From Escherichia coli (GTDB taxonomy: Bacteria > Pseudomonadota > Gammaproteobacteria > Enterobacterales > Enterobacteriaceae), in assembly GCF_017348835.2 (NCBI RefSeq), contig NZ_CP071375.1: DNA of 64,000 nt, one strand, 5' to 3'. Each line of letters opens with the position of its first letter. The stretch's first letter is position 1. Shown here in pieces: positions 48,994-52,082 of the stretch. Below the pieces are notes generated by a model. That model was given only the letters and a program-made list of their open reading frames with translations. It ran no database searches and had not been told where the DNA came from. Made by a program: the position numbers and the translations under genes.

Positions 48994-49226
48994 TGAGATC
49001 CCATTATTTTTATCAATTTTTGTTGCTATCCGATCGCAAAAAAGCCACGTCATATGATCAGATAATTCTGATAATGATAGACGCTATTTAACACTTCACA
49101 CGGTTTGTATACGGAAAAGCATTTTGCTTTTTGTATTCAATTTAGACAGAATTTTATTAATCATTTCAGGGTAATGGGGTGATGAGATGTTGCGTAACAG
49201 GGCCAGAAGGCTAGACTACAAAATAA

Positions 49227-50231
<1,005 letters not shown>

Positions 50232-50277
50232 CAAAAGCAATTTTTCCGGCTGTCTGTATACAAAAACGCCGCAAAGT

Positions 50278-50291
50278 TTGAGCGAAGTCAA
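50278..50291 (+). promoter_or_regulatory. FNR activator site for fnrS (class II position)
   Basis: TTGAG-CGAA-GTCAA centred about 42 bp upstream of the fnrS 5' end. Confidence 0.55.
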
Positions 50292-50326
50292 TAAACTCTC
50301 TACCCATTCAGGGCAATATCTCTCTT

Positions 50327-50448
50327 GCAGGTGAATGCAACGTCAAGCGATGGGCGTTGCGCTCCATATTGTCTTACTTCCTTTTTTGAATTACTGCATA
50401 GCACAATTGATTCGTACGACGCCGACTTTGATGAGTCGGCTTTTTTTT
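50327..50448 (+). ncRNA. fnrS: FNR-regulated small RNA FnrS
   Basis: Sequence GCAGGTGAATGCAACGTCAAGCGATGGGCGTTGCGCTCCATATTGTC...GACGCCGACTTTGATGAGTCGGCTTTTTTTT recognised, with intrinsic terminator. Confidence 0.85.
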
Positions 50449-50505
50449 GCCTGTTATTTATCAGCGTCTACCCTTTAAGAGTCCACCCAATGACCGGAGG
50501 GAAAT

Positions 50506-50679
50506 ATGACGACACTTATTTATTTGCAAATTCCTGTCCCTGAACCGATTCCTGGCGATCCTGTTCCAGTGCCCGATCCGATCCCTCGCCCGCAACCCAT
50601 GCCTGACCCACCACCCGATGAAGAACCGATTAAATTGTCGCATCGTGAGCGTAGATCTGCGAGGATACGCGCCTGCTAA
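50506..50679 (+). CDS. small proline-rich protein (57 aa), hypothetical
   Basis: ATG with GGAGG 5 nt upstream; MTTLIYLQIPVPEPIPGDPVPVPDPIPRPQPMPDPPPDEEPIKLSHRERRSARIRAC; below the ORF-track length cutoff. Confidence 0.4.
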   Translation: MTTLIYLQIPVPEPIPGDPVPVPDPIPRPQPMPDPPPDEEPIKLSHRERRSARIRAC

Positions 50680-50708
50680 CTTTGCGTCGATGACCACGAG
50701 AATAGATT

Positions 50709-52082
50709 GTGACCGCTTTTTCTACCCTGAATGTTTTGCCTCCCGCCCAACTCACGAACCTTAATGAGTTGGGTTATTTAACCATGACGCCGGTGCAGGC
50801 CGCCGCGCTTCCGGCGATCCTTGCCGGAAAAGATGTTCGCGTGCAGGCGAAAACCGGCAGCGGCAAAACGGCGGCTTTTGGCCTCGGCTTGTTACAGCAA
50901 ATTGATGCGTCGCTATTTCAAACCCAGGCTTTAGTGCTGTGTCCTACGCGTGAACTGGCGGATCAGGTGGCAGGTGAATTGCGTCGGCTGGCGCGTTTTC
51001 TGCCAAATACCAAAATTTTGACGTTGTGCGGTGGTCAACCGTTCGGTATGCAGCGTGATTCGTTGCAACATGCGCCGCATATTATCGTGGCAACGCCGGG
51101 GCGTTTGCTGGATCACCTGCAAAAAGGCACGGTATCACTGGATGCGTTGAATACGCTGGTGATGGATGAGGCCGACCGCATGCTGGATATGGGATTTAGC
51201 GATGCCATTGATGATGTCATCCGTTTTGCGCCAGCATCTCGACAGACGCTTCTGTTTTCGGCAACCTGGCCGGAAGCCATCGCCGCAATCAGCGGACGAG
51301 TGCAACGCGATCCTTTGGCGATTGAAATTGACTCAACAGATGCTTTGCCACCCATTGAACAACAATTTTATGAGACATCCAGTAAAGGCAAAATTCCTCT
51401 GTTGCAACGGTTATTAAGCTTGCATCAGCCATCCTCTTGTGTGGTGTTTTGCAATACCAAAAAAGATTGCCAGGCTGTCTGCGACGCGCTGAATGAAGTA
51501 GGGCAAAGTGCATTGTCGTTACACGGCGATCTGGAGCAACGCGATCGCGATCAGACCCTGGTACGTTTTGCTAACGGTAGCGCCCGTGTACTGGTTGCGA
51601 CTGATGTTGCTGCGCGTGGTATGGATATTAAATCGCTTGAGCTGGTGGTGAACTTTGAGCTGGCGTGGGACCCTGAAGTTCATGTACATCGCATCGGTCG
51701 TACAGCTCGTGCAGGAAATAGCGGTCTGGCGATCAGTTTCTGTGCTCCGGAAGAAGCACAGCGGGCCAATATCATTTCTGACATGTTGCAGATAAAACTT
51801 AACTGGCAAACGCCGCCAGCTAATAGTTCCATTGTGACGCTGGAAGCAGAAATGGCAACGTTGTGTATCGATGGCGGAAAAAAAGCCAAAATGCGCCCGG
51901 GTGATGTATTAGGTGCACTGACAGGAGATATCGGGCTTGATGGCGCAGATATTGGCAAAATCGCCGTGCATCCGGCGCATGTCTATGTCGCGGTCCGTCA
52001 GGCTGTTGCTCATAAAGCATGGAAACAGTTACAGGGCGGGAAGATTAAAGGAAAAACGTGCCGGGTGCGGTTATTAAAATAA
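50709..52082 (+). CDS. dbpA: ATP-dependent DEAD-box RNA helicase (23S rRNA-specific)
   Basis: 457 aa, GTG start, DEAD motif (MDEAD), sequence recognised. Confidence 0.95.
   Translation: MTAFSTLNVLPPAQLTNLNELGYLTMTPVQAAALPAILAGKDVRVQAKTGSGKTAAFGLGLLQQIDASLFQTQALVLCPTRELADQVAGELRRLARFLPNTKILTLCGGQPFGMQRDSLQHAPHIIVATPGRLLDHLQKGTVSLDALNTLVMDEADRMLDMGFSDAIDDVIRFAPASRQTLLFSATWPEAIAAISGRVQRDPLAIEIDSTDALPPIEQQFYETSSKGKIPLLQRLLSLHQPSSCVVFCNTKKDCQAVCDALNEVGQSALSLHGDLEQRDRDQTLVRFANGSARVLVATDVAARGMDIKSLELVVNFELAWDPEVHVHRIGRTARAGNSGLAISFCAPEEAQRANIISDMLQIKLNWQTPPANSSIVTLEAEMATLCIDGGKKAKMRPGDVLGALTGDIGLDGADIGKIAVHPAHVYVAVRQAVAHKAWKQLQGGKIKGKTCRVRLLK

Follow-up and report, generated by a model that had tools for sequence, protein, structure and literature searches.

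We have found that the open reading frame (ORF) at 50506-50679 of a 64,000-nt stretch of Escherichia coli DNA (contig NZ_CP071375.1; "the window" from here on) is, virtually beyond doubt, ynaL. This is a gene already known: it is annotated, it has a Pfam family of its own and its protein has been detected. The account that we favor for the gene as a whole, and that we hold with good confidence, is that of a free-standing, extended small protein, predicted to be EF-P-dependent, in which an X-Pro core would be the functional part and the C-terminal tail a by-product of the promoter of the following gene, dbpA. The features involved are collected in Table 1.

Table 1. Features of the fnrS-ynaL-dbpA region; positions refer to the window, and the last four rows are dbpA promoters of other genera.
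Feature	Position	Strand	Description
fnrS sRNA gene	50327-50444	+	Rfam RF01796, 134.8 bits, full length
fnrS intrinsic terminator	50421-50448	+	8-bp GC-rich stem and T8; terminator scan
Candidate ynaL promoter	50447-50474	+	-35 TTGCCT 50447-50452, 16-nt variable spacer, -10 TACCCT 50469-50474 inside conserved TCTACCCTTTAAG
Shine-Dalgarno GGAGG	50496-50500	+	5 nt 5' of the ynaL ATG; read from the sequence
ynaL CDS	50506-50679	+	ATG start, 57 codons and TAA; RefSeq annotation, Pfam match, published protein detection
Variable N-terminal segment, codons 1-17	50506-50556	+	Length and sequence differ between genera
Conserved X-Pro core, codons 18-42	50557-50631	+	DPVPVPDPIPRPQPMPDPPPDEEPI; amino-acid-level purifying selection
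DPPPD, codons 34-38	50605-50619	+	Predicted EF-P-dependent motif
Upstream conserved block, dbpA promoter	50627-50641	+	CGATTAAATTGTCGC; -48 to -34, near-invariant at the nucleotide level
C-terminal tail, codons 43-57	50632-50676	+	KLSHRERRSARIRAC; encoded by dbpA promoter DNA
dbpA core promoter	50658-50674	+	TG 50658-50659; -10 GAGGAT 50661-50666; 8-nt GC-rich discriminator ACGCGCCT 50667-50674
dbpA transcription start site (TSS), G	50675	+	Published mapping, MG1655 NC_000913.2 position 1407501; 34-nt 5'UTR
dbpA CDS	50709-52082	+	GTG start; downstream neighbor of ynaL
Buttiauxella dbpA promoter			TCTGC-TAATAT-GCGCGCC; extended -10, then GC-rich discriminator
Dryocola dbpA promoter			GCTGC-TAGAAT-GCGCACC; extended -10, then GC-rich discriminator
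Cedecea dbpA promoter			TCTGC-TAGCAT-ACGCGCC; extended -10, then GC-rich discriminator
Franconibacter dbpA promoter			TATGC-GAGGAT-ACGCGC; extended -10, then GC-rich discriminator

The earlier note had described at this place a proline-rich ORF of 57 codons with a strong ribosome binding site between fnrS and dbpA, and the description is exact, the translation being identical letter for letter and the GGAGG being present. In the orthologues shown, GGAGG or GGAG is kept upstream of ynaL. By megablast, the region 50240-50760 was found in 5,392 of the 5,426 complete E. coli genomes, and in all the sampled full-length matches dbpA comes next after a gene annotated as "ynaL: proline-rich small protein YnaL" or as "protein YnaL". 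The BW25113 record has ynaL, as WP_001296046.1, between zntB and dbpA. Besides, the protein matched the Pfam family PF23677 ("Protein YnaL-like") over model positions 1-57 of 57, with 136.9 bits (cutoff 27, E = 2.1e-40). Compared with YnaL of E. coli K-12 (PF23677, WP_001296046.1), the 57-amino-acid sequence and the location between fnrS and dbpA are the same, and with no difference to be found we are dealing with the same gene.

VanOrsdel et al. (2018; PMC6001520) printed a ynaL sequence (fnrS/dbpA, 1409308-1409481) that is identical to the ORF found here. They fused ynaL to an SPA tag on the chromosome and showed by immunoblot that YnaL is made in ordinary LB cultures, and reported ynaL among the positives of a screen by tetracycline-inhibited ribosome profiling; the adjacency to dbpA is mentioned there only as a possible operon. 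The reading of the ORF as a small protein, one of the two that the earlier note had offered, is thus borne out by the tagged chromosomal protein, by PF23677 and by the RefSeq annotation, and two of the checks proposed there, epitope tagging and ribosome-profiling or start-site data, had already come out positive in this published work (PMC6001520). It was the sole paper found in a literature search on YnaL, and a function is absent from it.

To avoid circularity, the genome scan that we used for comparison was anchored on fnrS and not on the ORF; it returned 120 species-level loci. From these, together with eight loci reached via homologues, we built a codon alignment of 73 distinct orthologous sequences. 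Over codons 18-40 pS was 0.63 and pN 0.084, with a dN/dS of 0.066, and codons 1-40 of dbpA, taken from the same genomes as a control, gave 0.072. Codon positions 1 and 2 of the X-Pro core are almost invariant and third positions are free to vary. The 25 residues of this core are therefore subjected to purifying selection at the level of the amino acids as strong as that acting on dbpA. Conservation of the reading frame across relatives, the remaining check of the earlier note, also favors the gene: the ORF is kept in more than 20 genera, and its frame survives in-frame indels, such as a duplication of 10 amino acids in Salmonella (P0053) and a deletion of 11 in E. coli E69, L057. Since functions exerted in cis by a nascent peptide conserve amino acids as well, dN/dS alone cannot tell a role in trans from one in cis.

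The length of the ORF is unremarkable in this region, where there are many ORFs of at least 30 amino acids; ynaL stands out because of selection and experiment and not because of its length. The many chance ORFs of similar length are what would speak for a spurious ORF, intergenic and pervasively translated, whose product is unselected. However, the selection signature of the core effectively refutes this explanation, the frame preserved through indels over so many genera and the stable tagged protein (PMC6001520) also contradict it, and we give it practically no credence.

The other end of the gene shows a very different pattern of substitution. Codons 41-46 are frozen at synonymous sites (pS 0.048), codons 47-49 are near neutral (dN/dS 0.71), with an in-frame stop in 15 of the 73 sequences, and codons 50-57 are again frozen (pS 0.005). 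The last ~15 codons are synonymously frozen because they overlap the core promoter of dbpA. Kim et al. (2012; PMC3415461), using TEX-enriched 5'-RACE-seq on cells in mid-exponential phase in M9 glucose, assigned to dbpA in their Table S1 a TSS at NC_000913 1407501 (+), with 126 reads. The published -50 to +1 sequence, ACCGATTAAATTGTCGCATCGTGAGCGTAGATCTGCGAGGATACGCGCCTG, is exactly window 50625-50675, so that the +1, G50675, falls in the Cys57 codon, two bases before the stop of ynaL. The TGcGAGGAT at 50658-50666 is an extended -10 whose hexamer has the A and the T expected at positions 2 and 6; the TSS comes 9 nt after the hexamer, and the position of the promoter fits the mapped start. A generic consensus promoter scan does not flag this -10, since the hexamer matches at only 3 of 6 positions. 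Nevertheless, the core promoter was invariant in 81 sequences, with the exception of the "n" of TGn (C or A in TCTG[C/A]GAGGAT). In a Cappable-seq supplement there were no matching positions.

In-frame stops ahead of the tail are found in about 15 of the 73 sequences (the E. cloacae/hormaechei group, Pseudescherichia, Kosakonia cowanii and others), and even in species where such a stop leaves it untranslated the string AGATCTG[C/A]GAGGATACGCGCC is invariant. Seven Kluyvera species miss the proline-rich ORF altogether, with a fnrS-dbpA gap about 145 nt shorter, and have kept the last ~60 nt; the upstream block CGATTAAATTGTCGC is kept in these Kluyvera as well and is recognizable in Cedecea and Buttiauxella. 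In these last two genera the DNA of the tail is homologous to non-coding DNA upstream of dbpA, and homologues of the extended -10 are located ~35-45 nt before the dbpA start in genera without ynaL at that place (Table 1). A tail that is kept despite stops or loss of the ORF is constrained as DNA or RNA, not as protein. It is promoter constraint that sets its sequence, with the rare codons AGA, AGG and ATA, and many lineages can dispense with it as a part of the protein.

Other promoters are known that lie within the 3' end of an upstream gene, and a GC-rich discriminator is found in rrnB P1; the dbpA promoter, located in ynaL codons 41-57, resembles both. The difference is that the coding tail of ynaL seems to have come about by extension of the reading frame into promoter DNA that was already there. 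As for the parts of this promoter, we would guess that the upstream block is a UP-like or -35 region, or else the site of a regulator, and the discriminator invites the guess that dbpA might be regulated by ppGpp/DksA.

Other causes of the frozen sites were considered and discarded. A conserved RNA structure was not apparent in the 3' end of ynaL and the dbpA leader, where RNAalifold on the 81 sequences gave -3.9 kcal/mol with trivial helices only, and Rfam had no match at E values up to 10. A TCGCA...TGCGA stem and the palindrome CGCAGATCTGCG had no compensatory changes in their support. Mimicry of helix 92 of the 23S rRNA, for autoregulation by DbpA, amounted to a short resemblance with no hairpin, and the promoter fits instead. 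Motifs for sigma-E, sigma-32, sigma-28 and sigma-54 and a CsrA site were, by eye, poor matches to the conserved block or explained too little of it. Coding in an alternative or antisense frame was also rejected: in most species the +1 frame and one of the antisense frames are free of stops, as expected from composition, and they have no conserved start.

The location of the dbpA TSS bears directly on the second suggestion of the earlier note, that the ORF could be a regulatory leader peptide of dbpA, which found no support; very probably, ynaL is not a leader for this gene. Since this start is within codon 57 of ynaL, the mRNA that begins there does not contain the ORF. Of the three things to be expected from a leader, none was found: the ORF is not in the leader of the dbpA mRNA, there is no attenuator structure (nor any terminator-like site after 50448 up to dbpA in the terminator scan), and there is no constant co-occurrence with dbpA, Kluyvera having dbpA without the ORF and 29 species having the ORF without dbpA next to it.

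A more restricted version would have ribosomes stalled at DPPPD, in response to EF-P or proline, control dbpA on read-through transcripts, through translational coupling or Rho-dependent polarity. With no terminator between the two genes, some bicistronic ynaL-dbpA transcripts probably exist. The DPPPD motif is conserved, the start of dbpA is GVG and its Shine-Dalgarno, GAGA, is weak, and the proline core is rut-like, being the most C-over-G-skewed 78 nt of the 64-kb window. There are also precedents in Salmonella, mgtL and mgtP (of mgtA and mgtCBR), leader ORFs whose proline codons sense EF-P or proline. Actually, the likeness to these and to classical attenuation leaders consists of a short ORF with consecutive proline codons upstream of a larger gene. 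On the other hand, here the dbpA TSS (the 126 reads) falls in the last codon before the stop of the ORF, alternative structures and a terminator are absent, conserved RNA structure and Rfam matches are missing, and the adjacency to dbpA is inconstant. The spacing between the ynaL stop and the dbpA start also varies, from about 27-29 nt in most genera to 14 nt in Klebsiella and an overlap in the K. oxytoca group, and early stops lengthen it to about 60 nt. Kluyvera lost the ORF and kept promoter and dbpA, and conservation spans 25 residues and not just the stalling codons. We regard this version as improbable.

An ORF that runs straight through the dbpA promoter, with a dispensable C-terminal tail, might also suggest transcriptional interference, that is, that transcription of ynaL and the coupled translation across 50627-50675 occlude or modulate the promoter while the peptide itself is functionless. 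This would leave the dN/dS of the core unexplained, and the same core is conserved in genes that do not overlap a dbpA promoter (the type B described below). We consider it very improbable. Selection on ynaL has two layers, for the peptide in the core and for the dbpA promoter in the tail.

What accompanies ynaL across species is actually the gene on its other side. The sRNA gene fnrS is nearly invariant across 8 genera, and the FNR box upstream of it, TTGAGCGAAGTCAA at 50278-50291, is conserved. Among the fnrS-anchored loci, 114 had enough downstream sequence to be used in a gene-order count, and in 103 of them an ORF of the YnaL family comes after fnrS. Two types could be distinguished. Type A (74 of the 114 loci) is the E. 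coli-type ORF, followed by dbpA. Type B (29 of the 114) has 45-55 codons, occupies the corresponding place behind the fnrS terminator and has no dbpA adjacent. Its sequence is ...SDPVPTDPVPVPDPIPRPQPIPDPPxDPDPxPIIDPPPH(M/R), and it is found in Pluralibacter, Phytobacter, Cedecea, Buttiauxella, Franconibacter, Trabulsiella, Dryocola, Mixta and others. In two type-B loci (Dryocola L079 and Franconibacter L066) ttcA comes next, in convergent orientation, and in those long enough to contain dbpA this gene is 2-10 kb off, with its own promoter. With the ORF after fnrS in so many loci, and 29 of them without an adjacent dbpA, ynaL travels with fnrS and not with dbpA.

The two types share the core as far as Pro-Ile, positions 41-42 in E. 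coli, and differ in their C-termini; the match of type B to the Pfam model of YnaL is limited to about positions 11-42. The point of divergence, at codon ~42, is the start of the DNA that is homologous to the non-coding sequence upstream of dbpA. The simplest reading of these comparisons is that a rearrangement joined a proline-rich gene linked to fnrS with the dbpA promoter, after which the ORF would read on to the first stop. The rearranged, type A group would be that of Escherichia/Salmonella/Citrobacter/Enterobacter/Klebsiella. Type B occurs in Mixta, one of the Erwiniaceae, as well as in the lineages of Cedecea and Franconibacter, which suggests, in an unrooted comparison, that this is the ancestral form. 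For the complete scenario, in which YnaL was ancestrally linked to fnrS in the type-B form, the dbpA promoter and gene were later placed against codon ~42 and the tail KLSH...RSARIRAC is translated promoter DNA, we see an even chance.

The linkage to fnrS does not make of this pair a dual-function sRNA of the SgrS/SgrT type. There the ORF is inside the sRNA transcript; in contrast, ynaL is outside the fnrS transcript, starting 58 nt past the end of the T-run of the fnrS terminator.

This intervening stretch offers a candidate promoter for ynaL. A conserved block, GCGTCTACCCTTWAAG, follows the fnrS terminator and precedes the Shine-Dalgarno of ynaL, and the distance from TTGCCT, in which the T-run of the terminator ends, to TACCCT/TATGCT/TACGCT is exactly 16 nt in 87 of 99 distinct sequences, with a spacer that varies in sequence. 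The predicted start of ynaL would be near 50481. In the consensus scan the candidate does not reach the threshold. The TCTAYSCTTAA context of its -10 resembles the -10 consensus of sigma-S, a sigma-S-like context that we take as a lead. The table of Kim et al. (2012; PMC3415461), from mid-exponential cells in M9 glucose, holds no TSS between those of fnrS (1407153) and dbpA. We infer that ynaL is transcribed from a weak promoter of its own, abutting the fnrS terminator and partly using it, to which read-through of the terminator from fnrS possibly adds some transcript.

Read-through could instead be the main source of ynaL mRNA, making its expression FNR-dependent and anaerobic and YnaL a participant in the same physiology as the sRNA. 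This companion role would agree with the fnrS-ynaL adjacency in 103 of 114 loci, including those where dbpA is elsewhere, with the conserved FNR box and with the fact that the sole TSS upstream of ynaL in the data of Kim et al. is that of fnrS (PMC3415461). However, the fnrS terminator, with its stem and T8, looks strong, YnaL was detected in ordinary LB cultures (PMC6001520), and a promoter-like block at fixed spacing separates the terminator from ynaL. In Intestinirhabdus and Shimwellia the -10-like block stays with ynaL, which is there, as is dbpA, 1.4-2.2 kb from fnrS. Adjacency alone is no proof of co-expression, and we find this alternative unlikely. On our reading, ynaL is a genuine, independently expressed small-protein gene.

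A conserved feature of the product is DPPPD: all 73 sequences have D34, P35 and P37, and 70 of them have P36, as 70 have D38; one variant of Citrobacter amalonaticus has PDPPQEDE, without PPP. In the type-B homologues a DPPPH is conserved near the C-terminus. Translation of XPPX motifs needs EF-P, and DPPPD combines motif classes reported as strong EF-P clients. With the conserved DPPPD, YnaL resembles the EF-P-dependent polyproline proteins that contain XPPX, such as CadC; it is plausible that translation of ynaL depends on EF-P through this motif. As a feature of the mRNA, the stretch of proline codons (C 42%, G 20% over the 78 nt) has a rut-like composition and is a possible Rho loading site; the C-over-G skew follows automatically from the CCN codons.

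The product would be a non-globular peptide, extended in the manner of polyproline II. AlphaFold2, run on an alignment of 31 sequences, predicted no secondary structure (pTM 0.23), with a pLDDT of about 90 for residues 21-40, and so high a value in a core without secondary structure means a confidently extended chain and not a fold. A sequence search of the PDB gave no relatives. Similar chains exist in other contexts. The proline-rich spacer of TonB shares the alternating X-Pro and the extended, polyproline-II-type chain; however, YnaL has none of the TonB domains, and a relationship was discarded, as the NCBIfam match to the proline-rich region of TonB (E = 2.9e-4, far below the cutoff) is compositional only, without homology, and that to Pfam TonB_N has E = 0.68. 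The proline-rich antimicrobial peptides apidaecin, oncocin and Bac7 likewise alternate X and Pro, but they are cationic, the core of YnaL is acidic and there is no homology. The conserved core might be a trans-acting docking motif to which a partner binds. For YnaL as a trans-acting docking peptide, judged from its pattern of conservation alone, the case is evenly balanced.

As a discovery the ORF adds nothing, and what may be new is modest: the overlap with the dbpA promoter, the two forms of the C-terminus and the linkage to fnrS. Those that study ynaL should find its anatomy, as described here, useful. Since the last 15 codons contain the dbpA core promoter and the TSS, C-terminal tags, deletions and "synonymous" recoding will change the expression of dbpA, and phenotypes of ynaL cannot be assigned to YnaL without controls for dbpA. 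If the rearrangement took place as we read it, the existing tags and deletions of ynaL necessarily disturb the dbpA promoter. A functional tie between YnaL and DbpA based on adjacency is weakened because the neighbor that is conserved across species is fnrS. The functional part of YnaL is narrowed to the 25-residue X-Pro core, including its EF-P-type motif, and, if the ancestral linkage to fnrS is true, the biology of YnaL would have to be sought with FnrS, in anaerobiosis or stationary phase, and with EF-P, and not with DbpA.

The promoter of dbpA was found to be lodged within the coding sequence of the small ORF that precedes it, ynaL. Its core consists of an extended -10 element, TGcGAGGAT, followed by a GC-rich discriminator of 8 nt. 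The start site published for dbpA, G50675, is itself a position of ynaL coding sequence (PMC3415461). The synonymous sites of the ynaL codons that overlap the promoter are frozen, with a pS of 0.005.

Features in and around ynaL (window coordinates)
Feature	Position	Strand	Remarks
YnaN ORF	49187-49234	+	15 codons, just 5' of zntB; RefSeq 'protein YnaN'
FNR-box-like palindrome TTGAGCGAAGTCAA	50278-50291		5' of fnrS
Candidate ynaL promoter	50447-50474		-35 TTGCCT and sigma-S-like -10 context TCTACCCTTTAAG
Pro-codon stretch	50536-50631	+	
dbpA core promoter and TSS	50627-50675		inside last 15 codons of ynaL

In-frame stops (TAG, TAA or TGA) in a three-codon linker cut YnaL short after ...PIKLSHR or ...PIKMSR in loci L014, L056, L068, L075, L102, L111, L127, L036, L016, L034, L103, L026, L030, L061 and L094 of the genome scan; these stops arose independently, and the linker is unconstrained. 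The promoter string 3' of the stops is invariant in the loci that carry them. Kluyvera (L022, L053, L060, L072, L089, L090, L123) has had the Pro-rich ORF deleted, and what is left 5' of dbpA is promoter DNA, with a 14-codon remnant ORF, (M/L)SH...RSARIRAC. In the K. oxytoca group (L051, L088, L121) it is the ynaL stop that was lost, so that the ORF crosses the dbpA start in another frame.

Changes of length affect the X-Pro region too, as a 10-aa in-frame duplication in Salmonella (P0053/L002) and an 11-aa in-frame deletion in E. coli E69 (L057), and these indels are repeat-mediated. No other 78-nt segment on the + strand of the 64-kb window is as C-rich and G-poor as the Pro-codon stretch (C 42%, G 20%); its composition is rut-like, although CCN codons by themselves account for that.

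Upstream, the candidate ynaL promoter has a -35 built on the tail of the T-run in the fnrS terminator, its -10 context is conserved and the spacing is constant in 87 of 99 sequences; the TSS table of Kim et al. (2012) records no start for it. The palindrome 5' of fnrS is kept across 8 aligned genera. Further away, the YnaN ORF is probably a uORF of zntB.

Type B homologues of YnaL, which end differently (...PDPPxDPDPxPIIDPPPH), lie directly 3' of fnrS in genera that do not have dbpA next to it (L017, L029, L033, L040, L066, L076, L079, L106, L117 and 20 more loci), and convergent ttcA, not dbpA, comes next in both loci examined (L066, L079). It is thus with fnrS that the adjacency of ynaL is conserved. 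In Yokenella (L063) and Entomohabitans (L112) fnrS is present without ynaL or dbpA after it; in the former a convergent gene appears, by eye from the translation, to lie directly 3' of the fnrS terminator. In E. coli, where the dbpA promoter lies inside ynaL, tagging or deletion of ynaL, of any kind, will disturb the expression of dbpA.
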